DNA of 64,000 nucleotides, from positions 110,236,001 through 110,300,000 of the forward strand of contig JBNRSN020000010.1 in assembly GCA_051313645.2 (NCBI GenBank). Reading direction: 5' to 3'. Shown piece by piece: positions 1-63,600 of this stretch (position 1 is the stretch's first letter; each line of letters begins with the position of its first letter). Below the pieces are notes generated by a model, which saw only the letters and a list, made by a program, of their open reading frames with translations, was not told the DNA's origin and did not search any database. The DNA is from Centroscyllium fabricii (Eukaryota). The position numbers and the translations under genes were made by a program.

Positions 1-2475
1 GGGCCTAGGGTGGGCTAGGAGGGTGGCGTTAGCCAGGGCGGTTTTGGTTGCGGTGAAGGCGGTGGCGGCGTCGGCCGTCCACTCGACCGCAGCCTTGTTG
101 GACTGCCCGTGTGTGGCCTGGTATAAGGGGGCCATGAAAGCGGCTGCTCCCGGGATAAAGCGGTTGTAAAAATTGACCATCCCCAGAAATTCCTGCAGCC
201 CCTTAATGGAGTGCGGGCGGGGAAATTCCTGGACCGCCTGCACCTTGAAGGGCAGAGGTATGGCCCCGCTTTGGGAAATGCGGTGGCCGAGGAAGTCAAT
301 GGTTTGGAGGCCGAATTTACACTTAGTGGGGCTTAATATTAGGCCGTGTTCGACCAGGCGCTGGAACAGGGTCCTGAGGTGCAGGAGGTGTTCCTGGGGG
401 GAGGTGCTGGCCACGAGGATGTCGTCTAAGTAGACGAAAATGAACGTCAAGTCCCGTAGGACCGAGTCCATGAGGCGCTGGAAGGCCTGGGCCGCGTTTT
501 TAAGGCCGAAGGGCATCCTGAGAAACTCGAAGAGTCCAAAGGGAGTGATAACGGCCGTTTTAGGAATGTCCGCCGGGTGCACCGGAACCTGGTGGTAGCC
601 ACGCACCAGGTCGATCTTGGAGAAGATCGTGCAGCCCGCTAGTCTGGCGGAAAAATCCTGGATGTGGGGTACGGGGTACCTATCCGGGGTAGTGGCATTG
701 TTTAGGCGGCGGTACTCGCCGCAGGGGCGCCAACCCCCGCCCGGCTTGGGGGCTATGTGAAGAGGAGAGGCCCAGGGGCTGTTGGAGCAGCGGATAATAC
801 CGAGTTGCTCCATGGTGCGGAACTCGGTGCGCGCGATCTCCTGTTTGGCCGGGTCGAGCCTGCGGGCGTGGGCATGGACGGGAGGGCCTGTGTTAGTTAT
901 AAAATGTTCTACCCCGTGTTTGGCCCGGCGGGCGGTGAACGTGGGGTTGGTTAGGGCGGGGAACTCTGCTAAGAGTGTGCCGTAGGCATCGGAGTTCCGA
1001 GAGCGGCATTGGGCGGCCGCGTGGGCCAGGAGTGTGGGCCCTGTGGAGCATGGGATGGTCGACATGTTATTAATGTCGACCAAGCGGCGCCGGGTCATAT
1101 CGACCAGCAGGCCGTGGGCGCAGAGGAAATCTGCTCCGAGGAGGGGTGAAGTGACCTGGGCTGTGACAAAGTCCCAGGTATACGTGTGGCCTGCAAGTGT
1201 AATCGTGAGCTTGCGGGTGCCGTACGTTTTGATATTGGAGCCGTTGGCCGCTGCGAGTGGCGGGCCCCGGGTGCCTTGTTTGGCTTCTGCAGGGGAGGCT
1301 GGCACGATGCTGTGCAGTGCGCCTGTGTCGCAGAGGAACCTGAGGCCTGTGCCGCTGTCTGTGATGAAGAGCAGTGCTCCTGTGTGTCCTACAGACATAG
1401 TGGGGGCTGGGGTGGGCCGTGGCTTAAATGCGCATGGCTGGACGCAGCGGTGCGCTTTACTATCGAACCACGTGTGGTAGTAGCACCAGCCGGTGCTAGA
1501 GGGACGCGGTTTACTGGGTGGGCGCGGGGCCCTAGGTTCAGGCATGAAGTTAGGCCTGGGGGGCGATTGGTTGCGCTCTATAGATGCGGAGTTAGGGTCG
1601 CACGTGGTTGAGCGGGTGCGCTCTGCCTCCATGAGCCTGTCGGCTTCCTCAGCTAGCTCGTCGTCGCTCCGCTGGCCAAGGGCCGCCAGGGCCGGTCTGA
1701 TGGAGCGGGGCAGTTTGAGGAGGAAGACGGTGCGGAACAGGGAGGCGGGATTGGCTGTGAGCGCTTGCATCTGACCCAAAAGGTCCGATGGGTCTGCGTC
1801 CCCGAGTTCGGGGAGGTCAAGGAGCTGGCAGTCGCGCTCGAATTGAGAGGGGGTAAAAAAAATTATGAGCGCGGCCTTGAGGGACTCGTACCTGCCTGTA
1901 GTGGGCACACGCTGTATTTTTGACCTCATCCGATCGATCGTCGACTGCGGTAGGGCTGAGAAGACCAGGTCGTAGCGGTCGTCCCCCTGGATGCCATGTG
2001 TGCGGCAGCTGGTTTCAATGCACATGAACCAGGCCGCTGGGCGTTGCTCCCAGAACTCTGGCAGGGTAAGTTTGTGCCCGAAGTTCTGGCCAAGTCCTTG
2101 GGTTTGTGGAGCTTGGTTCCTTGCTCTTGCAGCCATGTTTTCTCTTTTAAAGTGTCCTTAGGCTGGTGATCCTTGATCCTGCGGCAGCTTTTTTTTCTTT
2201 GGAAGTCGTTCCAATTCGGGGTCACCACTGTAGCGCCGGCAAGGCCTAGAAACCACGCGTGAGCCAGAGAGCTAGAGAAAACACTTGTTTAATGCATTAG
2301 AGTTAAACAGGAAAGAGAGCGAACCACTCGAAGCAAGCTTATTTAAACTGCCCGCCGTTGGTGACGTCATCACGCCGGAAGTCGTGGTGACGTCATCGCG
2401 TCACCCGGATGAGCGGGGCCATGCCCCGCGGTGTTTCCATGGCGGATTCGGTGTCCTAGTGGGCGTGCCGCCACA
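1..2475 (-). mobile_element. CsRn1/Kabuki-like Ty3/Gypsy LTR retrotransposon, 5' half (5' LTR 2229-2475, gag, protease, RT; runs off window start)
   Basis: Minus-strand translation shows gag with CHCC motif ([19 protein letters not shown], ~1430-1490), protease FLCDTGA and [13 protein letters not shown] / VYLDD (~421-440). TG...CA LTR is followed by TGGTGACCCCGA, a tRNA-Trp-type PBS. Confidence 0.9.
2216..2227 (-). promoter_or_regulatory. tRNA-Trp-type primer binding site
   Basis: Minus strand reads TGGTGACCCCGA 1 nt after the LTR end, matching the start of the known tRNA-Trp PBS TGGTGACCCCGACGTGAT. Confidence 0.8.
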
Positions 2476-28100: not shown

Positions 28101-30369
28101 TGCTGCACGGCGCCTATGGCATAATCCGAGGCGTCGGTGGTGAGTGCCAGGGGAGCGCCTGGGATGGGATGGGCCAAAAGGGTGACTTCCGCCAAGGCTG
28201 CCTTGGCTAGGCTAAAGGCCTTAGCCATGTCGGCCGTCGAGGACTGATGTATCGTCAATGAGACAAAGACGAGTAGTTACCTTAACTAGAGGCTTTTATT
28301 CACTTTACAATGGAGCTACTCTCCAGTCGAACATTGGGAACAGAATGTATGGGGGCAGGTCAGACCTCACCTATAAGGCGCTCACCTGAGGGGAAGAGTT
28401 AGAGGTGTGGCTGACCTGACCTCGCGACAGTGTCGTTATACAAAACTATATACAATGCACCCAGCCACTTTACATGTTGGTCTGTAGTGTGCTCAACTAT
28501 ATACACTGGTAATCATGATTACCACATTCACCCCTTCTTTGAAAATTGAGTCCGGTGGGGTGAATGGATAGAACCTGTTAATGCAGGGAAGGAATTCTTT
28601 TTTGTATATTGTTGTATGAGTCCAGCTCAACAGTTTACAATGAGTCTCTCCGGCAGTCGTGTCTGCCTTGAGGACCGCCGGGGTTCTGGTAGCGGCGCTG
28701 GTGCCGGTTGTGGCGGCGGGGCCGGGTCCTCCGGCAGCTGTGTCTGTGGTGTGGCGTCTGGTTCTCGGTCCTCAGCTGGTAGTGTCGGGGGCCCCGGTGT
28801 GTGCGTGTGCCTAGGCCAGGATCCGGTGGGTTGTGGTTGGTGTGTAGGCCAGTGGTCGGTAGGCGGTGGCTGGTCGGGCTGAGGCTCGACCAGCGGCTCT
28901 GCTGTGGTGCTCCCGGCGGGCGCTAGGTCCCTGATGGAAACTGTGACCTCGCACCCGTCCGGGAACTGCACGTAGGCGTACTGCGGGTTGGCGTGCAGCA
29001 GCTGCACCTTTTCCACCAGGGGGTCGGTCTTATGGCCGCGGACATGTTTTCTAAGGAAGACTGGCCCCAGCATCGTGAGCCATGGTGGGAGTGCTGTCCC
29101 CGAAGTCGACTTCCTGGGGAATGAAAACAGCAAGTCGTGAGGTGTGGCGTTGGTTGCTGTACACAGCAGAGAGCGGATGGAGTGGAGTGCGTCTGGGAGG
29201 ACTGCCTGCCAACGAGACACTGGAAGGCCTCTGGACTTCAGGGCCAGGCTGACCACCTTCCAGATGATCCCGTTCTTCCTTTCTACCTGGCCGTTCCCCC
29301 GGGGGTTGTAACTGGTCGTTCTGCTTGAGGCAACCCCTTTCAGAAGCAGAAACTGACGCAGATCGTCGCTCATGAACGACGACCCCCGGTCACTATGGAT
29401 GTAGCTGGGGAGACCGAAAATGGCGAACAGCGTGGTGAAGTGTTTGATCACCGTTGCGCTCATCATGTCTGGGCAGGGGAAGGCAAAGGGGAAGCGGGAG
29501 AACTCGTCTACGACCGTGAGGAATTACGAGTTGCGGTCGGTGGAGGGGAGGGGGCCTTTGAAGTCCACGCTTAGACGTTCAAAGGGGCGGGTGGCCTTAA
29601 TGAGGTGTGCCATGTCTGGCCTGTAAAATTGGGGTTTGCACTCGGCACAGAGAGGGCACTCTCGGGTCATAGCCTTGATCTCCGTGATGGAGTAGGGGAG
29701 GCTACCAGATTTAACGAAATGGGCAAGTCTGGTGATACCCGGGTGGCAGAGGCGATCGTGGAGTTCCTTCAGCTGGTCTAGCTGGGCACTGGCGCACGTT
29801 CCCCTGGACAGTGCGTCCGGGGGTTCATTGAGTTTGCCTGGTCGGTAAAGAATGTCGTACTCGTAAGTCAAGAGCTCGATCCGCCACCGCAGGATCTTAT
29901 CATTCTTGATTTTACCCTTTTGTTTATTGTTAAACATAAACGCAACCGACCGTTGGTCGGTGAGCAGGGTAATATACTTGTAACCGTCAATAACGTCTTC
30001 GGAGTCGAATAGTAGGTTATAATAATCAGGCTTTTATTAACTACGTTAGAGATACACAACCGAGCTGACTGTCCCCAGAATAGTGCGGGGGATGGGGACA
30101 GTCCTTTATATACCTCCTCCAGTGGGGGAGGAGTCATGGGCGGCGCCAGGTATGTCCCTGGGATCTCATACAGGTGTTACATGGTATTACAGTGCTATAC
30201 AGGTGTTACATGGTATTACAGTGATATACAGTTTATCACATTCACCCCTTCTTTAAAAACCAAAGTACGGTGGGGTGAACAACACACGGGGGGTACAAAA
30301 AGGAAAAAGAAAAAACAACTAATTACACGGTGCTCATTAACGAAATATATACAATTAATGTTCTTTTGA

Positions 30370-33300
30370 CTATATGTTTAGTCTTTCAGGCGGTTTCGTT
30401 GTCCGCGCTGATCTTCGCAGCGCTGGTGGTGCCTGTGGTGTTCGTTGTCGTGGAGTGGCTTGCCGTGCTGGCGGTGCCTGTGGTGTTCGTTGTCGTGGAG
30501 TGGCTGGTTGCGTCGGTTGTTCCTTTTCTGCTGGTTGGCTGGTGGTGGTTATGTCACTTCCGGGTGGCGGTGATGCCCTGATTTCGACAGCAGGGGGCGC
30601 GCTCTCTCTTTCGTCCTCTGGCTCTAGGGGGAGCGCATTGTGGATCCAGGCTTGGGGCTGGGTCGTGCTGCGCGCAGGTGCCTTGTGGACATACTGGGGT
30701 ACTGGGCCCACGTGTCGGAGCGTGTACTTCGACTTCGGTGGCTCGGGGGGCGTCACAGGGGGTTTTGGGAGCTCGGGCTGCCTGGCCGGGCTGGTTTTGG
30801 GGATCCCTGCTGGGGCTAGGTCCTTTATGGACACGGTGTCCTCCCTCCCGTCGGGGTACGTTATGTAAGCGTACTGGGGATTGGCGTGCAGGAGGTGGAC
30901 CCGTTCGACTAGGGGATCTGCCTTGTGTCCCCTCACATGCTTCCGCAGCAGGACCGGTCCCGGAGATAGCAGCCACGATGGTAGCGAGGTCCCGGAAGCT
31001 GACTTCCTGGGGAAGGCAAAAAGTCTTTCGTGAGGGGTGGCGTTAGTGGCAGTACACAATAGGGACCGGATAGAGTGGAGTGCTTCAGGGAGAACGTCCT
31101 GCCATCGGGTGACTGGGAGGTCTTTTGACTTTAGGGCTAACTGGATGGCTTTCCAGACCGTGGCGTTCTCTCTCTCTACCTGCCCGTTCCCCCGGGGGTT
31201 GTAGCTGGTAGTCCTGCTAGTTGCAATGCCTTTTGCTAGCAGAAACTGACGCAGCTCGTCGCTCATAAAAGAGGCCCCCCGGTCACTATGGATATAGTTC
31301 GGGTACCCGAACAGGGAGAAGATGCTACTGAGGGCTTTGATAACAGTGGCGGAGGTCATGTCCTGGCAGGGGATGGCGAAGGGGAAACGGGAGTACTCAT
31401 CTATAACGTTGAGGAAATAGACGTTCCTGTTGGCTGAGGGAAGGGGCCCTTTAAAATCGACGCTGAGTCGTTCAAAGGGGCGGGTGGCCTTGATTAAGTG
31501 CGCCCGGTCGGGCCGGTAGAAGTGCGGCTTGCACTCCGCGCAGACCTGGCAGTTGCTAGTCATGGTCTTGACTTCTTCGATGGAGTAGGGGAGGTTGCGG
31601 GACTTCACGAAGTGAACCAACCTGGTGACCCCCGGGTGGCAGAGGTCGTTGTGAAGGGTTTGGAGACGGTCAGCCTGTGCGCTGGCACAGGTACCGCGGG
31701 ATAGGGCATCTGGGGGTTCGTTAAATTTCCCGGGCCGATACAAAATATCATAATTGAACGCTGATAGTTCAATTCTCCACCTTAATATTTTGTCGTTCTT
31801 GATCTTACCCCGCTCTTTGTTGTTGAACATGAAAGCGACTGAGCGTTGGTCAGTCAGCAGGGTAAAACGCTTTCCGGCCAGGTAGTGCTTCCAATGCCGC
31901 ACTGCTTCAACAATTGCTTGGGCCTCCTTTTCGATTGAGGAATGGCGGGTTTCTGGGCCTTGGAGGGTACGTGAAAAGAAGGCCACAGGTCTGCCCGCCT
32001 GGTTAAGGGTGGCGGCCAGGGCAAAGTCAGATGCATCACTTTCCACTTGGAATGGGACGGACTCATCCACCGCGTGCATCGTGGCTTTGGCTATGTCCTT
32101 TTTAATTCTGCAGAATGCCGAGTTGGCTTCTGCAGAAAGTGGGAAAAAGGTTGATTTTAATAGTGGGCGAGCTTTGTCCGCATAATTGGGGACCCACTGG
32201 GCATAATAAGCGAAGAATCCCAAAATCCGTTTAAGAGATTTGGGGGAGTGGGGGAGGGGAAGCTCCATGAGGGGGCGCATGCGGTCCGGGTCTGGACCGA
32301 TGACTCCATTTTCCACCACGTTGCCGAGGATGGCGAGGCGGCCGGTGTTAAACACACATTTCTCCTTATTATACGTGAGGTTCAGGGTTTTGGCGGTGTG
32401 GAGAAATTTTTGGAGGTTGGTGTCATGGTCCTGCTGGTCATGGCCGCAGATGGTCACATTATCGAGGTACGGGAAGGTCGCTCGCAGCCCGTACCGATCA
32501 ACCATTCGGTCCATCTCCCTTTGGAAGACCGAGACCCCGTTCGTGACTCCGAACGGCACCCTAAGGAAGTGGTAGAGGCGGCCGTCAGCCTCGAAAGCAG
32601 TATACAGACGGTCCTGTGGGCGGATGGGAAGCTGGTGATAGGCAGATTTTAGGTCGATGGTTGAAAATACTTTAAACTGTGCGATTTGGTTCACCATGTC
32701 TGCTATCCGGGGGAGGGGGTAGGCATCTAACTGGGTGAACCGGTTTATGGTCTGGCTGTAATCCACTACCATCCTATTCTTCTCCCCGGTTTTCACCACA
32801 ACTACCTGTGCTCTCCAAGGGCTATTGCTGGCCTCTATGACCCCTTCTTTTAGGAGGCGCTGCACCTCGGATTTTATAAATGCCCTGTCCCCAGCACTGT
32901 AGCGCCTACTCTTGGTGGCGACGGGCTTACAGTCTGGGGTGAGGTTAGCAAAGAGGGATGGAGGGGCAACCTTAAGGGTTGAGAGGCCGCAGGTAGTATA
33001 CTGGGGATGCCGCTTTGAGCCGCGGTTTGTGACCGTGAGGGGAGGGAGGGGTCCACCGAAAGCCATCGTAACGCTCTGAAGGTGGCACTGGAAATCCAGT
33101 CCCAGGAGTAGGGGGGCGCAGAGCTGCGGCAGCACGTAAAAACTAAACTTGTTAAAGATTGCCCCCTTTACGTTTAGGGTTACACTACAGCGCCCGGTGA
33201 CGTCAGCGGATTCTGACTTTGACGCCATGGATATTCTCTGGCGCGCAGGGATTACTTTAAGAGAGAGGCGCTTAACAGTATTCTTATGGACAAAACTTAC

Positions 33301-33723
33301 TGTGCTCCCGCTGTCGAACAGGCACACCACCTCTTCACCGTTAACTTCCACCGGCATCATTGATCTCCCCAGTGGCTGGATTGTCTTCTGGTCTAGGCTC
33401 ATGGATGCTAGTACCGGGTCCTCCCCAAAGTCTTGATCCGGAGAGTAGTTATCTTGGTCCGGAGAGTAGTTATTTTGATCCGGAGAGTAGTCCTCCAGGT
33501 CAGTTTCCTGGGATGGCTGCCTCCATGTGCTGTACTGTTGAGTGGGGGATGGGTGCTGCCTTGAGTGCTGCTGGGTGGGGGATGGGCGAGCCTGCTGTTC
33601 CCTTGTTCCACAGGCAGCGCTGCCCAGTCTTGATTTAACATATGGGCCTTTGCAGACCTTTGCATAGTGTCCCTTTTTGTCGCACTTGGAGCAGATCGCT
33701 TCTCTGGCGGGGCAGCTGTCCAA
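30370..33723 (-). CDS. Element C pol (zinc knuckle, protease, RT, RNase H, integrase), 1117 aa open
   Basis: CSKCDKKGHYAKVC, LFDSGS, YLDN, ESDASD, HNDLCH...CQVC, HSDRG, GNGQVEREN. Confidence 0.9.
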   Translation of the reverse strand: MDSCPAREAICSKCDKKGHYAKVCKGPYVKSRLGSAACGTREQQARPSPTQQHSRQHPSPTQQYSTWRQPSQETDLEDYSPDQNNYSPDQDNYSPDQDFGEDPVLASMSLDQKTIQPLGRSMMPVEVNGEEVVCLFDSGSTVSFVHKNTVKRLSLKVIPARQRISMASKSESADVTGRCSVTLNVKGAIFNKFSFYVLPQLCAPLLLGLDFQCHLQSVTMAFGGPLPPLTVTNRGSKRHPQYTTCGLSTLKVAPPSLFANLTPDCKPVATKSRRYSAGDRAFIKSEVQRLLKEGVIEASNSPWRAQVVVVKTGEKNRMVVDYSQTINRFTQLDAYPLPRIADMVNQIAQFKVFSTIDLKSAYHQLPIRPQDRLYTAFEADGRLYHFLRVPFGVTNGVSVFQREMDRMVDRYGLRATFPYLDNVTICGHDQQDHDTNLQKFLHTAKTLNLTYNKEKCVFNTGRLAILGNVVENGVIGPDPDRMRPLMELPLPHSPKSLKRILGFFAYYAQWVPNYADKARPLLKSTFFPLSAEANSAFCRIKKDIAKATMHAVDESVPFQVESDASDFALAATLNQAGRPVAFFSRTLQGPETRHSSIEKEAQAIVEAVRHWKHYLAGKRFTLLTDQRSVAFMFNNKERGKIKNDKILRWRIELSAFNYDILYRPGKFNEPPDALSRGTCASAQADRLQTLHNDLCHPGVTRLVHFVKSRNLPYSIEEVKTMTSNCQVCAECKPHFYRPDRAHLIKATRPFERLSVDFKGPLPSANRNVYFLNVIDEYSRFPFAIPCQDMTSATVIKALSSIFSLFGYPNYIHSDRGASFMSDELRQFLLAKGIATSRTTSYNPRGNGQVERENATVWKAIQLALKSKDLPVTRWQDVLPEALHSIRSLLCTATNATPHERLFAFPRKSASGTSLPSWLLSPGPVLLRKHVRGHKADPLVERVHLLHANPQYAYITYPDGREDTVSIKDLAPAGIPKTSPARQPELPKPPVTPPEPPKSKYTLRHVGPVPQYVHKAPARSTTQPQAWIHNALPLEPEDERESAPPAVEIRASPPPGSDITTTSQPAEKEQPTQPATPRQRTPQAPPARQATPRQRTPQAPPALRRSARTTKPPERLNI

Positions 33724-34292
33724 GATTGCGGGGCTGGGCCCGTGTAGTTGGTAGAATAGGATGATAAATCCGTAGAGGCGCTATCTAGCGCGTGTCCCAA
33801 ATCGATAGTGGCCTGTAAGTCCTGGCCATTCTGTTCTAGCAGTCTTTGTCTAGCATAGTCCGATTTTAGGCCTGTTACATAGGCATCCCTGATAAGACTC
33901 TCCATATGTACTAGGGCCGTTTGCGCTCTGCAGTCACAGTCCCGTGCCAGGGTTCTGAGGGCTCTTAGAAACTGCACACTTGATTCGTGGTCCTGTTGTT
34001 TTCGGGTGGCCAGTATGTGCCTCGCGTGGACTCTGTTTGGCGCCCGATTGTATTCCCCGTCGAGGGTCCTGAGGGCTTCTTGGAATGATGAGGCGTCCAC
34101 TATCATCGAGTATACTTGCGGGCCCACCCGGGCGTGGAGGAGCCGTCGTTTTTGCTCCTCGGTCATTATGTCCGCTGCGTTGGCTCTAATGTATCCTTCC
34201 AGTACATTTCGCCAGTGTGAGAAAGCGTTTGATGCTCCAGGCGATCGGGGGTCAACCTCGAACACTGATGGTTTCAACATTGAAGTATCCAT
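33408..34292 (-). CDS. Element C gag, out of frame with pol
   Basis: Homologous to the N-terminus of D gag-pol (ARHILATRKQ, IRDAYVTGL, ARQRLLE). Confidence 0.85.
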   Translation of the reverse strand: MDTSMLKPSVFEVDPRSPGASNAFSHWRNVLEGYIRANAADIMTEEQKRRLLHARVGPQVYSMIVDASSFQEALRTLDGEYNRAPNRVHARHILATRKQQDHESSVQFLRALRTLARDCDCRAQTALVHMESLIRDAYVTGLKSDYARQRLLEQNGQDLQATIDLGHALDSASTDLSSYSTNYTGPAPQSWTAAPPEKRSAPSATKRDTMQRSAKAHMLNQDWAALPVEQGNSRLAHPPPSSTQGSTHPPLNSTAHGGSHPRKLTWRTTLRIKITTLRTKITTLRIKTLGRTRY

Positions 34293-35145
34293 TTCAAGTA
34301 GTTAATAAAATTGTAACCGTCAATAACGTCTTCGGAGTCGAATAGTAGGTTATAATAATCAGGCTTTTATTAACTACGTTAGAGATACACAACCGAGCTG
34401 ACTGTCCCCAGAATAGTGCAGGGGATGGGGACAGTCCTTTATATACCTCCTCCAGTGGGGGAGGAGTCATGGGCGGCGCCAGGTATGTCCCTGGGATCTC
34501 ATACAGGTGTTACATGGTATTACAGTGCTATACAGGTGTTACATGGTATTACAGTGATATACAGTTTATCACAATACTTACCGGCCAGGTAATGACACCA
34601 GTAGCGCACGGCCTCCACGATGGCCTGGGCCTCCTTTTCCACTTCAGAGTGGTGAGTTTCGAGTCCCTGTAGGGTGCGGGAGAAAAACGCTATGGGCCTG
34701 CCTGCCTGATTCAGGGTGGCGGCAAGGGCAAAGTCCGAAGCGTCACTCTCCACCTGGAAAGGGATGGACTCATCAACGGCGAGCATGGTCGCCTTGATAA
34801 TATCTTCCTTGATCCGGGCGAACGCCGTTTGGACTTCTACCGAGAGGGGAAAGACGGCAGCCTTGAGGAGCGGTCTGGCCTTATCCGCGAACTGGGGAAC
34901 CCATTGCGCGTAATAGGAGAAAAATCGCAGACATCTCCTCAGGGCTTTGGGTTTGTGAGGTAGGGGCAGTTCCTGTAAGGGACACATACGCTGTGGGTCG
35001 GGGCCGAGGACCCCGTTTTCCACCACGTATCCGAGGATGGCGAGCCGATCTGTACTAAAGACGCACTTGTCTTTAAAGTACGTGAGATTGAGCCGTTTTG
35101 CCGTGTGGAGGAATTTGGCCAGGTTGGCATCGTGGTCCTGCTGGT

Positions 35146-38100
35146 TGTGGTAACCCTTATATGGTTACCATTGTATAGTATGCCATTGTATAGATGCATT
35201 GTGTAGATGCTGCTGGGAGCCAGGTCAGCCACACCCCCGACTCCTCCCCCAGGTGGGGGCACCGATATAAGGTGTGGTCTGGCCCAGCTCCTTCATTCCT
35301 GTATGTGAACTTGTGAGGAGACTAGCTCCATTCTTTATCAATTAAAAGCCTTGTATTTCGGTACTTACGAGTCGCCTTTTAATTGAGTTAGCGACTACGC
35401 TACAATTTTAATTGATAATCTTAAAATGGAGAGCAGCACAGTAAAGCCTAGGGAGCTGGACATTAGCCCCCAGGAGGCCGCGGCACCAGCCACCTTCAAG
35501 CACTGGTTCGGATTACTAAAGGCCTATATGGCAGCAGCCAAGGCTACCAAGGATGAGGACAAACTCCAAGTCCTGCTATCCAGGATCTCCAGCAGGGTTT
35601 TCACCCTTGTCGAGGACCTTACAACCTACGAGGAAACTGTGACGACCCTCAAAAAGTACTATGAGCGCCCGGTCCACTCTGTCTACGCCCGCCACCTACT
35701 AGCGACCCGATCTCAATTACCCGGTGAGTCAAACGACGAGTTTGAGCAAGCGCTCCGGGGCATGATACGGGCCTGTGGCTGCAAGGGTGGATTGACTGTG
35801 GCACAGGAGGAAAACCTCCTCCTCCGGGACGCCTATGTCTCAGGACTAAGATGTGCAGTAGCCCGTCAGAGGCTACTGGAAAAGGACAATCTGACCCTTG
35901 AGGAGGCAACCACGTTAGCCAAATCGGTGGAGGGGGCCCGTAATAAATCGCAGACGTACGGTGGTACCAGCCATCAAGTCTACAACATATGGGCCGCGCC
36001 ACAACAGGCGTCACGGATTGAGAGCCCCACGATGGCCGCGACGGCCACCATGGACACTAAGCACAAACACTGCTATTTCTGCGGCCAAGGATTGCACCCC
36101 AGAGCAAAATGCCCAGCCAAGACGGCGACCTGCGAAAAATGCTCCAAGAAGGGACACTTCGCCAAGGCCTGCAGATCCACTCCAGCCGCAGCGCCAAAAA
36201 GGTACAACAGTGCAGCCTGTGAGAGCCACCACCATCAGGTAAGCTGCATTTGCAGTGCTATTCAGCGACGGCAAGCGCCCCCTTTGCCCACCTCGATGCA
36301 GCGGCGACCGGCCAAACGCGATCTTACAACGCGGCCGGCTGCGTGCGAATCACGGGCACCGCCAGCACGTCCACCGCGGTTAGCTGCGTGCGAACCACGG
36401 GCGCCACCAGCGCGTTCACCGCGGTTAGCTGCGTGCGAACCACGGGCGCCGCCAGCGCGTTCACCGCGGTTCGCTGCGTGCGAATCACGGGCACCACCAA
36501 CGCATCAGGGCCACGCAGTAACGCTACCCCGCAACCTAGGCCCCTCCATGTGCGAGCCGCGGAAGACGCCATCTTGCGCCCAGGGCCCCTCCATGTGCGA
36601 ACCAGGGACGGCGCCATCTTGTATACGGGGCCCCACCAACTGCGGACCAGGGGCTGCGCCATCTTGTATCCAGGGCCCCCTCATGGGCGAGCCAGGAGCG
36701 GCGCCATCTTGTATCCAGGGCCCCTCCATGTGCGAGCCAAGGGCGGCGCCATCTTGTATCCAGGGCCCCTCCATGTGCGAACCAAGGGCGGTGCCATTTT
36801 GTGCACAGTCCCCATCAGCAGGGGCTGCTACAACCACAGTTAGCCAAAGCAAGCCCCATCACCTGTCTAATTCCATAATACCTATTATGATTAATAACCA
36901 TACCGTCGACTGCCTCCTTGACACGGGCAGTACCGAGAGCTTCATTCACCCTGATACAGTGCGGCGTTTCGGGCTGCAGGTCCTGCCCACCAACTACCAA
37001 GTGTCCCTAGCTTCACAGTCCCACACCGCGGACGTCACCGGCTACTGCTCCGTCACGCTCACCGTCCAGGGACGCGTGTACCGCAATTTTAAATTTTATA
37101 CCCTCAAAAAGTTGTGTGCCCCAGCCTTACTAGGCTTGGATTTCCAGTGCCACTTCAGGAGCGTGACCATGGAGTTCGGCGGGACTTTACCCCCCCTCAC
37201 CCTCAGTAGCCGGGACAATCTCCCCCCGAAGCGGACCCCGGCCTGCGGCCTCTCCACCCTGAGAATCGACCCCCCCTCACTGTTCGCCAACCTCGACCCA
37301 AAGTGCAAACCAATCGCCACCAAGAGTCGGCGGTACAGTGAGGGGGACCGAGCGTTTATCAGGTCGGAGGTCGGGCGGATGCTGAAGGAGGGGATTATTG
37401 AAGCCAGCACCAGCCCCTGGCGCGCCCAAGTTGTAGTGGTGAAGTCTGGTGAGAAACAACGGCTAGTGATCGACTATAGCCAGACTATCAACCGCTACAC
37501 CGGGCTCGACGCCTACCCCCTTCCCCGCATCTCGGAAATGGTCAATCAGATCGCCCAGTACAAGGTGTTCTCCACAATCGACCTTAAGTCAGCGTATCAC
37601 CAGCTCCCGATTCGGAAAGCCGACCGCCCCTACACCGCCTTTGAGGCGAACGGTCGGCTCTACCACTTCCTCCAGGTCCCATTTGGCGTGACCAAAGGAG
37701 TGTCCGTGTTCCAACGGGAGATCGACCGTATGGTTGACCAGAATGACTTGCAGGCCACCTTCCCTTACCTGGACAACGTGACCATCTGCGGCCACGACCA
37801 GCAGGACCACGATGCCAATCTGGCCAAATTCCTCGACACGGCGGCTAAGCTGGACCTTACGTATAACAAAGACATGTGTGTCTTTAATACAACCCGGCTC
37901 GCCATCCTCGGATACGTGGTGGAGAATGGGCTCCTCGGCCCCGACCCACAGCGTATGCGACCCCTGCTAGAACTGCCCTTACCTCACAACCCCAAAGCCT
38001 TGAGGAGATGTCTAGGATTTTTCTGCTACTATGCACAATGGGTCCCGCAGTTCGCAGACAAGGCTAGACCACTCCTCAAGGCTGCCGTCTTCCCCCTTTC

Positions 38101-39978
38101 TATAGAAGCCCAAAAGGCATTCGAAAGGATAAAGGAAGATATTATCAAGGCGACCATGCTCGCTGTTGATGAATCCATCCCTTTCCAGGTGGAGAGTGAC
38201 GCTTCGGACTTTGCTCTTGCTGCCACCCTGAATCAGGCAGGCAGGCCCGTAGCGTTTTTCTCCCGCACCTTACAGGGACCCGAGACTCGCCACTCTGCAG
38301 TGGAAAAGGAGGCCCAGGCCATCGTGGAGGCCGTGCGCTACTGGCGTCATTACCTAGCCTGTAAGCGTTTTACCCTGCTCACCGACCAACGGTCGGTAGC
38401 GTTTATGTTTAATAATAAACTACGGGGTAAAATCAAGAATGATAAGATCATGCGGTGGCGGATCGAACTCTCGACTTACGAGTATGACATTCTTTACCGA
38501 CCAGGTAAACTCAATGAACCCCCGGACGCACTGTCCAGGGGAACGTGCACCAGTGCCCAGCTAGACCGGCTGAAGGACCTCCACGACCGCCTCTGCCACC
38601 CGGGTGTCACCAGATTAGCCCATTTTGTCAAATCTCGTAGCCTCCCCTACTCCATCACGGAGATCAAGGCTATGACCCGAGATTGCCCTGTCTGCGCCGA
38701 GTGCAAACCCCACTTTTTCCGGCCAGACACGGCGCACCTCATTAAGGCCACCTGCCCCTTTGAACGCCTCAGCGTAGACTTCAAAGGCCCCCTCCCCTCC
38801 ACTGACCGCAACTCATACTTCCTCACGGTAGTGGATGAGTTCTCCCGCTTCCCCTTCGCCTTCCCCTGACCAGATATGACGAGCGCAACGGTGATAAAAC
38901 ACTTCACCACGCTGTTCGCCATCTTCGGTCTCCCCAGCTACATCCATAGCGACCGGGGGTCATCGTTCATGAGCGATGAACTGCGCCAGTTTCTGCTCCA
39001 GAAAGGGGTTGCCACGAGCAGGACGACCAGTTATAACGCCCGGGGGAATGGCCAGGTAGAAAGGGAGAATGGGATCATTTGGAAGGCGGTCACCCTGGCT
39101 CTCAAGTCCAGGGGCCTTTCAGTGTCCCATTGGCAGGCAGTCCTCCCAGACGCGCTGCACTCTATCAGGTCATTATTATGTACTGCTACTAACGCCACCC
39201 CGCACGATCTTGTTTTTTCCTTCAACAGGAAGTCAACTTCGGGGACGGCGCTCCCACCATGGCTGACGACTCCAGGGCCGGTTTTCCTTAAGCGGCACGT
39301 TCGGTGCCACAAGACGGACCCCCTGGTGGACAGGGTACAGCTCCTACACGCCAACCCGCACTACGCCTTTGTGCAGTTCCCAGACGGGCGTGAGGACACC
39401 GTGTCCATCAGGGACCTGGCCCCGGCCGGCAACACCGCCACAGCGCCTCCTGCTGGCCAGCAGATCGACCTACCACCAGACACAAGATGGGCCCCGAGTT
39501 TCCCCGCCGATGCACCAGACGACGAGGCCCAGCAGAACCCACCACGTCCAGAAGTTACAGCACCAACGGAGGCGGGCTATTTGACCATGGAGGCACCACC
39601 ACCAACACCAGAACCCCGGCGGTCCGCAAGACAAACGCGACCACCGGAGTGACTGATTATGAACTGTTCCGTACATTCACCCCCCCCCCCCGGACTCAAA
39701 GTTTTTAAGAAGGGGCGAATGTGGTAACCCTTATATGGTTACCATTGTATAGTATGCCATTGTATAGATGCATTGTGTAGATGCTGCTGGGAGCCAGGTC
39801 AGCCACACCCCCGACTCCTCCCCCAGGTGGGGGCACCAATATAAGGTGTGGACTGGCCCAGCTCCTTCATTCCTGTATGTGAACTTGTGAGGAGACTAGC
39901 TCCATTCTTTATCAATTAAAAGCCTTGTATTTCGGTACTTACGAGTCGCCTTTTAATTGAGTTAGCGACTACGCTACA
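35146..39978 (+). mobile_element. Gypsy element D; LTRs 35146-35404 and 39720-39978
   Basis: 259-bp LTRs with 2 differences seen, ctggt TSD and PPT aagaaggggcgaa. Inserted in the RT of B. Confidence 0.96.
35426..39652 (+). CDS. Element D single gag-pol polyprotein with one premature TGA in integrase (38867-38869)
   Basis: ORFs 35426-38869 and 38876-39652 are in the same frame. FAFP*PDM corresponds to FAFPCPDM in B and FAIPCQDM in C. Confidence 0.92.
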
Positions 39979-42900
39979 CTGGTCATGGCCGCAGGTAGAG
40001 GAAAGTGGCCTGCAACCCATTCTGGTCAACCATGCGGTCCATCTCCCTTTGGAATACCGACACTCCGTTGGTCACGCCGAAGGGGAACCGGAGGAAGTGG
40101 TAGAGCCGACCGTTCGCCTTGAAGGCGGTGTACGAGCGGTCGGCTTTCCGGATCAGGAGTTGGTGATACGCCGACTTAAGGTCGATTGTGGAGAAAACCT
40201 TATACTGGGCGATCTGGTTAACCATTTCCGAGATGCGGGGAAGGGGGTAGGCGTCGAGCCCGGTGTAGTGGTTAACGGTCTGGCTGTAGTCGATCACCGT
40301 CCGCAGTTTCTCGCCAGTCTTAACCACTATGACCTGGGCCCGCCAGGGGCTGGTGCTGGCTTCAATTATCCCCTCCTGCAGCATACGCCCGACCTCCGAC
40401 CTGATAAATGCCCGATCCCCCGCACTGTAACGCCGACTCTTGGTAGCAATAGGTTTGCAGTTGGGGTCGAGGTTGGCAAACAGCGAGGTGGGGTCGACTT
40501 TCAGGGTGTATAGGCCGCATGTCGGGCTCCACGTTAGGAAGGGATTGTCCCGGCTACTGACGGTGAGGGGGGCCAGGGTCCCGCCGAACTCCATTTTCAC
40601 GCTATTCAGGTGGCACTGGAAATCCAGTCCCAGTAAGACTGGGGCGCACAACTGCTGGAGTATATACAGTTTAAAATTACAGTACACGCAATCCCTGACT
40701 GTGAGCGTGACGGAGCAGTAGCCGGTGATGTCCGCCGTGTGGGACTTTGAAGCAAGGGAGATTTGGTAGTGCGTGGGCAGGGTCTGCACTCCGTAGCTCC
40801 GCACTGTGTCGGGGTGAATGAAGCTCTCTGTGCTTCCGGTGTCGAACAGGCAGTTGGTGATATGGCCGTTAACCTTAATCCCCATCATGGAATTTGATAG
40901 GGTGTGCGGCCTAGCGTGGTTGACCGTGGCTGAGGCCGAAGTGTGTGTGTGTGTGTGGGGGCCCTCCGCTAGCTGGGGCCGTGCACAAGATGGCGGCGCC
41001 CGTGATTCGCACGCGGCCGACCACGGTGGACAAGATGGCGGGGCCGGGGGGTCGCACATGGCTGGCCGTTGAAGACAAGATGGCGGCGCCGGGGGGTCGC
41101 ACATGTCTGGCCGCTGAAGACAAGATGGCGCCACCGGGGTGTCGCACATGGCTGGCCGCTGAAGACAAGATGGCGGCGCCCGTGATTCGCACGCGGCGGG
41201 CCGCGGTGGACGCGGTGGCGGTGCCCGTGGTTCGCACGCGGTGGACCGCGCTGGGCGAGATGCCGGCGTTGGGGGGTCGCCCATGGCCGGCCGCGGCCGT
41301 CTTTGGCATGGCGGTGCCCGTGCCGCGTGCGCGGCCGGCCTCTGCCGTATCGGGTTGGGAGACGGGGGCGCTTGTAGTCTACCCCCGGACCGCTGCTGGG
41401 TTGTGCTGCAATAGCAGCTTACCTGAGGCCATGGGATGGCGTTGGAGCTCTCGCAGGCCGCGCTGTTGTGTCTGGAGCTGGGCGCTGGGGCCGATTTGCA
41501 GACCCTGGCGTAGTGTCCCTTTTTACTGCATTTCTTGCAGGTCGCAGTCCTCGCAGGGCATTTCGCTCGCAGATGCAGTCCCTGGCCGCAGAAGTAGCAT
41601 TTTCTGTCTGCCGGCGTCTTCGCAGCTGCCGCTGCCATTGTGGGGGTCTCGACCTGTCGTGGGGCCGCCCAGGAATCGAGGGTGGGCCTTGGCCGCTGTA
41701 CGCCTCTAGCCTGCAGCATGCTCCATCCACCGCGTTAGAGATGGAGATCGCCTCCTCCAGCAATAAAGTCTCTTTCTCCAGCAACCGCTGGCGGGCCTGG
41801 CTGGACCTGATCCCCGTCACGTAGGCGTCTCGAACGAGAAGATTCGTCTCCTCCTGCGCCGTTCGTGCCTGGCAGTCACAGGCCCGGGTGAGGGCTTGAA
41901 GCGCCAACAAATATTGTTCATTAGACTCACCGAGCCGTTGTTGTCTGGTCGCCAGCACGTGTCTAGCGTAGACCGAGTGGACCGGGCGCGCGTAGCATGC
42001 CTTCAGTTTTTCCACGGCCTCTTTGTACGTTTTTGCGTCGCGGATGAAGGAGTATACCTGGCTGGAGATCCTGGACGAGAGAACGTGGAGTTTGTTCCCG
42101 TCGGTCGTCGCCTTGGCGGCCGCCATGTAGGCCTCGACAAGGCTGAACCAATGCTCAAACGTATTGGCGGCGTCTGGATCCTGTTTGCTGATATCCAGCT
42201 TTTCGGGTTTCACAGCGCCGCTCTCCATTTCGAAAATTTAAAGTGAATAAAATTGATGTATCGTCAATGAGACAAAGACGAGTAGTTACCTTAACTAGAG
42301 GCTTTTATTCACTTTACAATGGAGCTACTCTCCAGTCGAACATTGGGTACAGAATGGATGGGGGCATGTCAGACCTCACCTATAAGGCGCTCACCTGAGG
42401 GGAGGAGTTAAAGGTGTGGCTGACCTGACCTCGCGACAGTGTCATTATACAAAACTATATACAATGCACCCAGCCACTATACATGCTGGTCTGTAGTGTG
42501 CTCAACTATATACACTGGTAATCATGATTACCACAAGGAAAAATTGTCCTTGCCGGTCTTGCCCCTGGTGGCCTCGTATCCCCTGATAAGGTCGACCTTG
42601 GAAAAGATCGACTTGCCCGGCAGGTGCGCCGAAAAGTCTTGAATATGTGGTACTGGGTACCTGTCGGGCATAGTGGCGTCGTTGAGGCGTCTGTACTCCC
42701 TGCATGGGCGCCATCCGCCACTGGGTTTGGGGACGATGTGGAGCGGGGACAACCATGGGCTGTTGGAGGGCGGGTGATTCCCAGCTTCTCCATCACTGAG
42801 AACTCGTCCTTGACCATCACCATTTTGGTGGGGTCCAGGCACCTGGCTCGGGCGAAAACCGACGGGCCCGTATTGCTGATGTGGTGCTGGACGCCGTGAT

Positions 42901-44976
42901 TGGCCGCCACTGCTGAAAACCTTGGTTGCGTGATGCCGGGGAACTCACCCAGTTGCATTGCGTATTTGTCACGGGGCAGAGAAGAGCAGGAGCTCACGAG
43001 GGTCTGGCTGTTGCTCCGATGGCAGGGCAGGGAGGCAAAAGTTGAAGCGTCCATGAGGCGCCTACCTTGGACGTCAACGATTAGGCCGTGGGCACACAAA
43101 AATTCTGCACCGAGCAGTGGTTGTTCCACTGCGGCTGTGACAAAGTCTCATGTGAACCTCTGGCTGCCGAGGCATATCTCTGCTCGGCGTTTAACAAAGG
43201 AGGTAATGGCGCCGCCATTGACTGCGACGAGGGGTAGACTGGTGTGGCTGGCCTGTCGGTCGAGCTGCGTGGCTGGGAGGATGCTGCATTGGGCTCCGGT
43301 GTCGCAGAGGAATCTGCGCCCGGAGGGTCAGTGACGAAAAGCAGCTTTCCTGCTGCGCCGACGGCGTTGGCAGCGGCTGGGCCTTGTCGGAGGCGTGGTG
43401 CTGCAGCAGCTTGATTGGGCACGAAGGAGCAAAGCGGTCTGCAGCGCTGGGCCTGTGGGCCAAATCGTGCGTGGTAGTAGCAGAGCCCCATCTGCGGTTG
43501 TGGCGTAGGCCTGCGTGTGGGCAGAGTGAGCCTCGTGGCTGCGCAATCCACGGTCGCACAGATTTGGATGCAGTCTGCCGCAACAGCCAACTCTGCATAG
43601 ATTAGGCCTTCTGCGTTAGCCAAGGCTGTTTGCATCGGCTATGGCAGCATGCTGATGAACAGCGCCCGAAATAAGGGGCAGTTTTTGTCGTCACCGAGGA
43701 GGGTCAGCATACGATTCATAAGGCGCGTGGGGGTAGAGTCACCCAGTCCTGAAAGTTTGAGGAGCTGCCAGGCCCGCACATTCTCAGGCAGGTTGTGGGC
43801 CTGTAGCAGGCGTTCTTTAAAGGCCCCGTACCTGTTATTGGGCGGCAGTAGCCGCAGTAGATCAACAATGTCCACGGCAACGTGGCTGGGCAGGGCTGCC
43901 ACGATAATGAGGTAGCGGTTGGCATCGTTGTTGAGTCGCCGGAGCTCGAATTGGGCCTCGGCCTGGAGGAACCAAGCAGCCGCTTGGTGTTCCCAGAAGG
44001 CAGGGAGGCTGAGGTTCTACGGCCGTTCAGCGGCTGGGCCCGGGGCGGCCGCGCTTTGCGCGTTCGGGTCAGGCAGTTCGCTGTCTGACATCGGGGTCAC
44101 CAATTGTAGGGGTTATCCAACCTCCTACCTAAAGTTTTTACCAAAGAGACGCAGTGCACTGGAGCACGGGTAAAACATTCTTTAATCTTGAACTCCATAC
44201 AACGACAGTTGGAAAAGAGCGCGAAAGCGCGAAGCATTGTGGGAAAAGAGATGGACAGTTCCTTAGGCCACTCAGGAACCAGGACAGGGATGCCGGCTGT
44301 CCAATAGGGAAATGTAGGCAGGACCGACTGTGAAATGCAGATTGTGGCTTAAAGGGAAGACCCAGGGCCTTCCCCGGGTAGCTATGCTACAGTGTCATCA
44401 GCCAGGTGGCGAGTGGATAACCCTTGTCTCCGAGCAGCCAGTCACAAGCTTCATGTGGTGGGTGGAACTGTGCTGGGACACAGGTCTGTTGCAGGATGAA
44501 TGCATTGTGGCTGCTGCCAGGATAGCGGCCATTGACGGCGAGGATGCGCTGCCTGTGGTCGCACACCAACTGCACTTTCAGAGTGGTAGCTTTTGCGGTT
44601 GCGGATCACCTCCCTCTGCATTGTGATGAGGAGCCTGCAATGACGCGTGGGTACAGTCAGTGGTGCCCTGAACCCTGTGGAAGCCTGCTGTCCTTGCAAA
44701 GCCACATGAGCGTTAATGCTGTTTGTCTCTGGTCATTTGGAATGAGATGTACTTCCTTCTCCTTCTGTACAGAGCATCTGTTACATCCCAGATGCAGGAA
44801 TGGACGGCAAACTGGGAGATGTTTGCAATATCCCCTGTTGAAGCATGGAAGGAGCTGCTGTGACCTTCACTGCCACCGACAGAGACGTCCTGGTCCTGAG
44901 CCGAGGCTGGAGCTCTGGTTGCAGGAGGTGGTAGAGGTCTGTGACCACCTCCTTGCTGAAATTGAGCCTTCTAAGG

Positions 44977-54341: not shown

Positions 54342-54695
54342 CACTGGGTCTCTGGTCTCTCAACTCCCGACTCCAAAGATTGAAAAAAGCCGGCAAACGT
54401 GAGGTTTTTATACTCACTGGGCCTCTGGTCTCTGGTCTTTCAGCTTCCGACCCCAAACACTGAAAAAAAGCCCGCAAAAGTGAGGTTTTTATATCACCAG
54501 GCCTCCGGTCTCTGGTCTCTCTGCTCCCAGCTCCAAACAATGAAAAACAGCCCGCAAAAGTGAGGTTTTTATACTCACTGGGCCTCCGGTCTCTGGTCTC
54601 TTAGTTCCTGACTCCAAACACTGAAAGAAAGTCTGCAAAAGTGAGGTTGTTATACTCACTGGGCCTCCGGTCTCTCGTCTCTTAGCTCCCAACTC
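54342..54695. repeat. ~81-bp tandem repeat, about 4 copies (a further unit at ~53725-53789)
   Basis: Repeated aaagtgaggtttttatactcactgggcctccggtctctggtctc. Confidence 0.85.
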
Positions 54696-55599
54696 CATAC
54701 ACAGGCAGTTAAGAGGCTTTTTGTAATTTTGACTGGTCTACTGCGGGCTTCCCAACATCTGGACACCATGCCAGGGTAAGTGTGGTGTGCTGTGGGTCTA
54801 CTGTAGTGTTTCTGCATTGATGACAACTGCAGAAGTGGTGTGAAGGATCCACTGGTACACTGGTGAGTTTCAGAGGTAAGAAAATGTTGGGAAATTGATT
54901 TTTAATGATTTTAGACTTTTCTGTAGGTGACAAGTTTGGAATTGTTTGTGTAGTCCCATCACATTGGGGGAACATCTCTCACCAGTGACAGATCACTTCT
55001 GTAACCTCATCTACAGTTGCCATCTGTTCTAGCCTAAGGTTGGAGTCACTGGAGAGTCTGGGTTCAAGGACTCACCTTTGTACAGTGATTGTCAGTGTTT
55101 GCAGCTCCTCCATGCTGTCAAACACTGAAAAATCAGCTGTCAAAAAAAATTGTCTGTGGCCCCTTTAAGAAAACTGACAGATGACACAGCATCAACTGAC
55201 ATCATCTGACACCGGCTTTCTCGTAATTGGCAGGCAAGCTTGCAGGGTGGGCTTAACAAGGCCAATTGATGCAAAATCGCGTCTGGACGTCAAGCGTCAT
55301 TGGGGGCGGGATTGGAACCCTGAAGGCAGCTGTCCTGCCCCCAAGCCACATCTCGAGGAAAGATCACGGCCATAGACTACACTTGAGTCATGGTTTGATT
55401 TTGTGCATGAGATATTCACAGCTACCATTTTCTGAACTATGCATTCTTGAATGTAAACAGCTACAAAATCGCTTCAGATATAACATAACAGATTTACATT
55501 TGTAAATCACTACAGGTAAGGGGAAAACCAAAAGATGTAAAGTGATTAAGCCAGGAAAGAGAAATAAAAAACATGTGAGTAAAATATCAGATCTGAAGG

Positions 55600-60643: not shown

Positions 60644-63600
60644 TGTGGTAACCCATATTGTATATACGATTACCACTGTAATATTGTCGCCAACATTGGC
60701 TTTGTATGATACACCGCTTTGCAACACTGTCGTGGAGCCAGGTCAGCCACACCTCTAACTCCTCCCCCAGGTGAGGCCCTTTATAGGTGAGGACTGACCG
60801 GCGCTCCCTCATTCTGTTCTGTTGTTCGTTCGGAGGGTAGCTCCAAAGTAAGTTAATAAAAGCCTATAGTTAAGGACACTACTCGTTTAGTCTTTTATTA
60901 AGACAATTGACGATACGTCAATTTTATTAACTTAAACATTTTTGAAATGGAGAGCGGTGCGGTAAAGCCAGAGAAGCTGGACACCAGTCCACAGGACCCA
61001 GCCGCCGCCACCACGTTCGAACACTGGTTCGGTCTCCTGGAGGCCTATATGGATGCCGCCAAGGCTACAACCGACGGGAACAAATTGCAGGTTCTCCGGT
61101 CTAGGATCTCCAGCCGAGTATTCTCCCACATCCGAGACGCCAAAACCTACCCAGGGGCAGTGGAAAAGCTGAGGAAATGCTACGAGCGCCCGGTCCATTT
61201 GGTCTACGCCAGACATGTGCTCGCGACCAGACCACAACTACCGGGTGAGACTAACGAACAATTTGAGCAAGCGCTCCAGGCCCTGGTACGGGTCTGTGGC
61301 TGCCAAGCATGGACAGCAGAAGTGGAGGCGAATCTCCTCATCCGAGATGCGTATGTGACAGGCCTGAGGTGCGTGGAAGCCCGCCAGCGGCTGCTCGAAA
61401 GACTCTTTGACTCTTGAGGAGGCGATCTCCATAGCTAACTCCATTGAAGGAGCACGCAATAAGCTGCAGGCGTACAGCGGCACAAACCCGCAGGCCTACG
61501 ACATGTGGGCCGCGCCACAACGGCCCCAGGCCTGGGCAGCACCACAACGGGTCGAGACCCCCACGATGGCTGCGACAGCCGCAAAGGACAAACGGTGCTA
61601 TTTCTGCGGCCAGGGACTGCACCCACGAGCGAGATGCCCAGCGAGGACCGCGACCTGCGAGAGGTGCTCCAAAAAGGGACACTATGCGAAGGCCTGCAGA
61701 TCAGCACCAGCAGCGCCCAACTCCAGGCACAACAGCGCAGCCTGTGAAAGCTTTGTCAGACCTCAGGTAAGCTGCAATAGCAGCGCGATCCAGCGACGGT
61801 CCGGGGGTAGAAGGAAAGCGCCCCCATCTCCCACCCTGATGCGGTAAAGGCCGGCTGCACCCACGGCACAACAAGCTCAGCCACGGCCGGCCAAGCGCGA
61901 CCCCCCAACGCCAGCTGCAGACCCAGCGCGGCCCGCTGCATGCGAATCACAGGCACCGCCAAACCAACCACCGCGGCTCGCTGCGTGCGAACCACGGGCA
62001 CCGCCAACCCAGTCACCGCGGCCCGCTGCGTGCGAACCATGGGCGCCGCCAGCGTGCTCACAGCGGTCAGCCGCGTGCGAACCACGGGCGCCGCCATCTC
62101 GTCTCCAGCGGCCCACCATGTGCGACCCCCGGCGCCGCCATCTTGTCTCCAGCGGCCCGCCATGTGCGACCCCTCGGCGCCGCCATTTTGTCTCCAGGGT
62201 CCCACCATGTGCGAGCCAGGGGCGCCACCATTTTGTGTACAGCCCCAACCAGCAGGGGGCCCCCACACACAAAAGCACACTTCGGCCTCAGCCATACCCA
62301 AAGTGGACCAGGCTAGGCCACACAACCTTTCTAACTCAATCATGCCGATTAAAATTAACGGCTATATTACCAATTGCCTGTTCGACACTGGAAGCACGGA
62401 GAGTTTTATACACCCCGATACAGCGCTATGGACTGCAGATCCTGCCTACGCGCTACCAAGTCTCCCTTGCTTCATAGTCCCACACCGCGGACGTCACCGG
62501 CTACTGCTCCGTCACGCTCACAGTCAAGGGTTGTGTGTACCGTAATTTTAAATTGTACACCCTCAAGCAGTTTTGTGCCCCAGCCTTACTAGGTCTGGAT
62601 TTCCAGTGCCACCTCAAGAGCGTGACAATGGAGTTCGGCGGGACCTTGCCCCCCCTCACCGTCAGTAGCCGGGACAGTCCCTTCCCAAAGCGTAGCCCAG
62701 CCTGCGGCCTCTCCTCCCTGAAAATTGACCCCCCCTCACTGTTCGCCAACCTCGACCCCAAGTGCAAACCTATTGCTACAAAGAGTCGGCGGTACAGCGT
62801 GGGGGATCGCACGTTTATCAGGTCGGAGGTCGGGCGTATGCTGAAGGAGGGGATAATTGAAGCCAGCACCAGCCCCTGGCGGGCACAGGTAGTAGTGGTG
62901 AAGTCTGGCAAGAAACAGCGGCTGGTTATCGATTACAGCCAGACTATCAACCGCTACACCGGGCTCGACGCCTACCCCCTCCCCCGCATCTCGGACATGG
63001 TCAACCAGATCGGCCAATATAAGGTGTTCTCCACGATCGACCTTAAGTCGGCATATCACCAACTCCCGATCCGGAAAGCCGTCCGCCCGTACACCGCCTT
63101 CGAGGCGAACGGTCGGCTCTACCACTTCCTCCGGGTCCCCTTCGGCGTGACCAACGGAGTGTCAGTGTTCCAACGGGAGATGGACCGCATGGTTGACCAG
63201 AACGAGTTGCGGGCCACTTTCCCTTACCTGGACAACGTGACCATCTGCGGCCACGACCAGCAGGACCACGATGCCAACCTGGCCAAATTTCTCGATACGG
63301 CGGATAAGCTGGACCTTACGTATAACAAGGACAAATGTGTCTTTAATACAGACCGGCTCGCCATCCTCGGATACGTGGTGGAGAACGGGGTCCTCGGCCC
63401 CGACACACAGCGTATGCGCCCCCTACAAGAACTGCCCCTACCTCACAACCCCAAAGCCTTGAGGAGATGCCTAGGATTTTTCTCCTACTACGCACAATGG
63501 GTCCCACAGTTCGCGGACAAGGCTAGACCACTCCTCAAGGCTGCCATCTTCCCCCTCTCGGTAGAAGCCCAAACGGCATTCGCCCGGATAAAGGAAGACA

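Follow-up and report, generated by a model that had tools for sequence, protein, structure and literature searches.

A candidate self-primer over the LTR poly(A) signal in an animal Gypsy clade lacking a tRNA-type primer-binding site

How does a Gypsy retrotransposon begin reverse transcription when no TGG-starting primer-binding site (PBS) follows its 5′ LTR? The window analyzed here, a 64,000-nucleotide stretch of the Centroscyllium fabricii genome, raises this question in four elements, B, C, D, and E. To our knowledge, Tf1 is the only element for which self-priming has been demonstrated; for its chromovirus relatives and one Copia lineage, it has been inferred. The reading that we favor, at a probability of about 0.55, is that in an animal Gypsy clade without a chromodomain, an internal segment over the poly(A) signal would prime reverse transcription after a cut by the element's own RNase H. 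Self-priming in some form is very probable.

The elements had the PR-RT-RNase H-IN order, TG...CA LTRs, polypurine tract, and short target site duplications (TSDs) of Ty3/Gypsy LTR retrotransposons (Table 1). The gag-pol frame of D contained a single in-frame stop, in integrase (38867-38869). Elements C and D lay within the internal region of B, and B lay within an element with a TGG-type PBS, forming a nested stack at 25911-44391; at 34577-35150, D also interrupted a pol piece from the same clade. D (36282-36836), B (40940-41339), and E (61834-62270) each carried in-frame tandem repeats of 45 nt between the zinc knuckle of gag and the protease, and unrelated tandem arrays of 25-nt and 81-nt units occupied 16819-17168 and 54383-54735, respectively.

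Table 1. Positions in the window of LTRs, candidate primer segments, PBS-position complements, and associated features
Feature	Position	Strand	Remarks
D 5′ LTR, TG...CA	35146..35404	+	99.2% to 39720-39978; 5-bp TSD CTGGT both sides
D TATA-like box	35266..35271	+	69 nt before D segment
D initiator-like motif, predicted +1 = 35295	35293..35298	+	29 nt after TATA; spacing calibrated on sushi-like controls
D predicted outer helix, 5′ arm (partner: gag start-codon region)	35326..35332	+	
D candidate self-primer segment with ATTAAA; predicted cut after 35347	35335..35347	+	exact complement
D second complement of poly(A) segment within U5, alternative hairpin	35376..35386	+	
D U5 terminal hairpin	35389..35402	+	
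D PBS-position complement, 1 nt after LTR	35406..35418	+	the following base, 35419, varies recurrently between T and A
D gag-pol, one frame, PR-RT-RNase H-IN, RT motif YLDN, without chromodomain	35426..39652	+	
D polypurine tract, abuts 3′ LTR	39707..39719	+	
D 3′ LTR	39720..39978	+	
C 5′ LTR	34312..34573	-	3′ LTR 29979-30240; TSD AGTAT
C candidate self-primer segment (AATAAA)	34365..34377	-	
C PBS-position complement	34298..34310	-	
B 5′ LTR	42254..42535	-	3′ LTR 28245-28526; 97.2%; TSD with one mismatch
B candidate self-primer segment, AATAAA/ATTAAA toggle in family	42303..42316	-	
B PBS-position complement	42239..42252	-	
E 5′ LTR	60644..60920	+	98.2% to 3′ LTR just past window end; TSD ACACC
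E candidate self-primer segment (AATAAA)	60849..60861	+	
E PBS-position complement	60922..60934	+	
Control: LTR end and TGG-type PBS, DUF7041-gag Gypsy element, 1-nt gap	2216..2233	-	
Control: LTR end and TGG-type PBS, second Gypsy element, 2-nt gap	44091..44109	-	

The first-pass annotation had matched the PBS position of each of the four elements to a segment of its own LTR, and all four pairs were exact reverse complements. When LTR ends were set by LTR pairs and target duplications, independently of the pairing, a single A separated the terminal CA from the paired site in B, C, D, and E, bearing out the claimed 1-nt offset, and loops of 58 nt (D), 54 nt (C), 50 nt (B), and 60 nt (E) agreed with a partner placed 50 to 60 nt upstream. 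The chance of finding such a partner anywhere in an element's own LTR is roughly 0.5-2e-5 per element. As positive controls, two tRNA-type elements of the window had normal TGG sites. Absence of the TGG site from the paired elements does not reflect decay, since the first 99 to 100 gag residues were identical among at least 150 copies in D and among at least 150 in C. These two families are, judging from their sequences, very recent bursts.

To survey other copies and families, leaders anchored on the gag start were collected through searches of the same genome with four window and three foreign queries, and from 400 kb of contiguous neighboring and other stretches. An unguided longest-helix scan found a perfect helix of at least 10 bp in 154 of 186 gag-anchored leaders, many of which are copies of a few families and so not independent, versus 3 of 310 dinucleotide shuffles. 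Within these 154 helices, 143 ended in AATAAA(A) or ATTAAA(A), CAA preceded 137, and GCC followed 135. A later set contained 315 leaders, 282 of which could be anchored by at least 9/13 matches, so that counts from these 282 and from the 36 family representatives lean towards pairing; most of the 33 leaders left out were copies with truncations, interruptions, or mutations. TGG was found at the PBS position in 0 of the 282, extending the claimed lack of a TGG-starting site beyond the window, and AATAAA or ATTAAA was present in 278.

Two other parts of the original description needed revision at this scale. GCC followed the signal in 32 of 36 representatives and not always, as had been proposed (GCT in 2, GTC in 1, TGG in 1), and a helix of 13 to 14 bp was correct for B, C, D, and E, with lengths of 11 to 18 bp across the clade. 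Positions 1 to 13 paired in 32 to 36 of the cluster representatives and position 14 in 19 (13 expected), with pairing at chance from position 15 onward. The base before position 1 paired in none of the 36 (35 G·A and 1 T·T), and the length of the A-run (3 or 4) covaried with that of the T-run.

Named homologs came from sharks and rays, a cnidarian, nematodes, a mollusc, and an echinoderm; the nearest named proteins were those of sharks and rays, at 75 to 86% identity. Eight same-clade elements lay on MAG-labelled contigs of assemblies labelled bacterial (L084 to L091) and are probably carried-over animal DNA. Six of the eight gave a leader, L086 and L090 having no usable one, and all six, of four distinct types, kept the pairing with other sequences, their RTs being 58 to 73% identical where measured. 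A metagenome scan gave 3 matches, all to the zinc knuckle only, a scan of viral contigs for the clade gave no matches, and a protein-cluster atlas searched with gag returned unnamed clusters only. The pairing is confirmed as real and clade-wide in these young elements and their relatives.

Covariation, claimed from four families, was upheld within families, between families, and in distant relatives. Complementarity was likewise kept in other copies; for example, the B pair was Watson-Crick in 27 of 29 copies, and the AATAAA/ATTAAA toggle in this family was represented by 13 A·T, 14 T·A, and 2 discordant copies. Among 360 position cells in the 36 representatives, 344 were Watson-Crick, 2 were G·U, and 14 were mismatched, whereas the outer and U5 helices contained G·U pairs and bulges. 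Across 8 groups (249 copies), shared segment variants were found in 11 of 80 columns, compared to 166 of 1,301 unpaired flank columns. Ten of these 11 variants were fully matched on the PBS side (55 of 58 copies), and 7 of the 10 matched changes were transversions, for which there is no G·U route. Private changes were unmatched (11 segment only, 23 PBS only, 1 both), as expected after insertion.

Deviations from pairing were not evenly placed. In a 100-copy group, position 8 of the segment and PBS were linked with an r2 of 0.96, tighter than with any other marker, and one-sided deviations (segment:PBS) numbered 14:14 at positions 1 to 10 and 5:27 at positions 11 to 14 (p = 0.006). For T>A at position 11 (7 copies), A>C at 13 (5 copies), and A>T at 14 (8 copies), changes on the star-like tree equaled the number of copies. 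Shared unmatched variants in the 100-copy group fell at position 12 (8 C·A and 2 T·G), and in the family with an 18-bp helix, 3 copies shared one at position 13 and 2 copies shared one at position 7. Pooling seven other groups also gave an end-of-helix asymmetry (11:18 versus 7:46, p = 0.013), which we give little weight because 33 of the counts sit at the first unpaired base of D and E. In D, segment positions 1 to 14 were invariant in 69 of 69 copies covering the segment, and position 14 on the PBS side (35419) was the most homoplastic of 77 columns, in conflict with 53 of the 76 other informative ones and mixed in both D subfamilies; its 19 A among 70 copies all occurred in the first 30 listed and are thus not a frequency. 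In C, the segment was unchanged in 30 of 30 other copies, and none of this variation, a variable position 14 included, was seen.

Errors at positions 11 to 14 could be slippage, since they are sited at the edges of A/T runs. Taken together, strict Watson-Crick pairing and a cluster of errors on the PBS side point to a primer role and not only a fold. Under standard LTR replication, recurrent PBS-side errors would fit ragged plus-strand ends at the second jump. The pattern fits a PBS that is recopied from a self-primer.

Where the RNA begins determines whether the segment could be its 5′ end. Two chromodomain-bearing, sushi-like elements of the same genome (L076:2339-7854 and L097:3954-9579) were used as controls. 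In both, an 11-nt self-complement followed the LTR across a 1-nt gap, and its partner started at TATA+29-31 and lay 270 to 350 nt before the poly(A) signal. The clade segment was instead found at TATA+67-73 in 18 of 36 representatives, 14 of which also had an initiator-like motif at +27-32; a TATA match was missing in 16 of the 36 and stood at other distances in 2 more. Judged by this motif spacing, the segment is probably not at +1, as had been suggested earlier, and we infer a +1 about 40 nt upstream of it. A +1 primer would suit the 18-bp helix family, whose helix starts at an initiator-like A. In five families, neither the predicted start nor the predicted cut was an error hotspot, and linkage of R-upstream markers with U3 or U5, examined in 100 of 110 copies, reflected mostly clonal subfamilies; neither result favored a 5′ over a 3′ source of the primer, or the reverse.

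Leader folds were compared within and across families. Bases upstream of the segment were predicted to pair with the AUG region in an outer helix of −6.75 kcal/mol in own-family combinations versus −5.87 kcal/mol in cross-family ones (n = 31), a difference reached in 0 of 2,000 shuffles, although shuffles across related families are not probabilities. This helix requires upstream RNA, which argues for a start upstream of the segment. Whole-leader folding energy was unremarkable (z of −1.1 to −2.1). Another complement of the poly(A) segment, located in U5, was weak clade-wide (18 of 2,000 such shuffles) and clear mainly in D/E types; in D and at the matching site of E, it permits an alternative hairpin in both LTRs. 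The D LTR alone folds a second hairpin over the signal, which complicates the idea that the signal is hidden only at the 5′ end.

According to the mechanism we propose, the upstream initiator, some 40 nt from the segment, would be the transcription start, and the 5′ leader would fold the segment onto the PBS in cis. The same hairpin would hide the 5′ AATAAA/ATTAAA, and the outer helix would cover the AUG. RNase H, in which the four acidic residues were intact and aligned with those of Ty3, would cut at the A/G purine mismatch following the A-run to leave ...AAAA-OH, a cut that can be likened to the one in Tf1 at nt 11/12. Minus strong-stop DNA would then extend to GCC and jump via the short GCC-to-poly(A)-site homology. 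Finally, plus-strand synthesis would copy about 10 to 14 nt of primer, so that the PBS would be rewritten from the LTR segment and a single mutation would yield a matched pair. The 1-nt gap at the LTR boundary is common to the clade, the sushi-like self-primers, and one TGG control of the same genome.

Several of these observations can also be read in other ways. The packaged RNA could start at or near the segment, from a second downstream start, with its capped 5′ end as the primer; this would be ordinary Tf1-type priming in which overlap with the poly(A) signal is the sole oddity. A short defined primer would suit the sharp end of pairing at 13 to 14 and the errors at 11 to 14, initiator-like motifs also occur 16 to 18 nt 5′ of the cut and precisely where the 18-bp helix starts, and the upstream TATA is missing in many distant families. 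We nevertheless consider a capped primer unlikely, given the canonically spaced TATA and initiator 40 nt upstream in 14 representatives, the sushi-like calibration, an outer helix that needs RNA 5′ of the segment, and errors that are ragged and not confined to a single site. Alternatively, the segment in the 3′ R could pair with the PBS to form an RNA circle, with a cut that removes GCC...poly(A), strong-stop DNA that reaches the cap, and RNase H trimming of the primer to the paired 13 to 14 nt. Priming from the 3′ end would account for the constant overlap with the poly(A) signal, an internal primer, and its ragged 5′ end, and would let the first jump use about 40 nt of homology. This is doubtful, as the 5′ segment is only 24 to 61 nt from the PBS and should presumably pair first. 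The broader proposal of a pan-animal clade primed through circular RNA by a 3′-end poly(A)-signal segment, in which one helix would serve as poly(A) switch, primer, and self-rewriting PBS, is just as tentative; if true, 3′-end circle priming would be a route unlike tRNA, half-tRNA, or Tf1 5′-end priming.

A purely regulatory hairpin, hiding the 5′ poly(A) signal and AUG while some other primer is used, would explain why a functional hexamer was kept in 278 of 282 leaders and why outer and U5 helices exist. It would not be expected to exclude G·U pairs and bulges almost entirely, to accumulate matched transversions at the background rate, or to occupy the exact PBS geometry of elements that offer no other primer site, and we regard it as improbable. 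Priming by a host tRNA, tRNA fragment, or other small RNA is more improbable again, with TGG in 0 of 282 leaders and a site that changes in step with the LTR of each family, even between copies over 90% alike. Direct comparison with tRNAs found complements of at most 4 to 5 nt, in a sample of only 11 sequences of 2 isotypes that is not decisive alone.

If the internal segment is the primer, self-priming extends to a separate and abundant animal Gypsy clade, the rule that a self-primer is a capped 5′ end no longer holds, and priming becomes tied to 3′-end control. Genomic copies also provide evidence on whether the PBS is inherited from the primer. Annotation based on the PBS will label elements of this clade as PBS-less, and silencing by tRNA fragments at the PBS would presumably not apply to them.

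Placement of the clade bears on its relation to chromoviruses. In an unrooted RT-RNase H comparison that included only 2 chromovirus rows, the clade formed its own branch (100/100) on a stem of 2.2 changes per column, with support of 64 for a sister relation to chromoviruses. Cigr-1, Mag A/B/C, MolGy, and Tor2 are among the named metazoan nonchromoviral clades in the accessible text of one survey (PMC6238403). Elements of the Tf1/sushi group are described as sharing a three-duplex pretzel and a chromodomain (PMC10085805, PMC4600332). No chromodomain was detected at E ≤ 0.1 in C pol, D integrase, or three homologs, while one was found in both sushi-like controls; the earlier claim that the elements lack this domain therefore stands for the integrases of B, C, and D and the three homologs. 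Pretzel duplexes were unsupported in crude 15-nt windows (own/cross-family energies of −3.29/−3.20 and −3.18/−3.43 kcal/mol; n = 36). The clade thus appears Tf1-like in its working, yet falls outside the chromoviruses by chromodomain, pretzel, and its own long branch. As a separate observation, the RT catalytic motif was YxDN in 96 of 120 homologs and YxDD in 23, with none found in 1, and C, D, and E had the YxDN type. The engineered equivalent in Ty1 reportedly keeps polymerase activity and blocks transposition, yet these families are very young and numerous.

Self-priming itself is already known (Tf1/sushi, Tcn1, TAR). Some animal Gypsy families are said to be labelled self-primed in Repbase, and these elements may already be catalogued there. 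A search of the open literature, with Repbase and subscription papers outside its scope, found no description of an internal primer over a poly(A) signal. The proposed masking of both signals has a parallel in HIV-1, where a poly(A) hairpin and a U5:AUG helix hide the poly(A) signal and start codon in the 5′ leader. In contrast to the clade, HIV-1 is tRNA primed, the strand that does the masking is distinct from its PBS, and its helices tolerate G·U pairs and bulges.

Hairpin priming is mentioned for chromoviruses only in the available portion of one source (PMC3601003). In plants, Tcn1 (Gypsy) and TAR/Houba/Osr-1 (Copia) were predicted from sequence to be self-primers and, like the present clade, have no tRNA PBS; they differ in belonging to plant chromovirus or Copia lineages, and the accessible part of that report describes no overlap with a poly(A) signal (PMC6317226). 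Other replacements of the PBS include a polypyrimidine site in the dictyostelid Skipper, a T-rich site in SM-Tcn1, and a conserved hairpin in fungal GalEa, for which the accessible passages report no complementary LTR segment, whereas that of the clade is exact and covarying (PMC5006619, PMC2864245, PMC5445492). The closest likeness is to Tf1, which is primed by the first 11 nt of its own RNA once RNase H has cut (PMC7175516). As in Tf1, Tf2, Tj1, and the Tf1/sushi group, an LTR-adjacent PBS complements the element's own LTR and an RNase H cut is proposed, so far as the consulted sections describe them (PMC7175516, PMC10085805, PMC4600332). The sushi-like elements of the same genome resemble the clade in the 1-nt gap and in having a purine-purine mismatch at the junction. 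Unlike Tf2, the clade lacks a Tf2-type SH3, and unlike the 11-nt Tf1/sushi primer taken from the very start of the RNA, the clade pairing spans 11 to 18 bp at TATA+67-73, judged by motif spacing, and lies over the poly(A) signal. To this record, the present analysis adds the evidence for recopying of the PBS and a start-site calibration made within the same genome.
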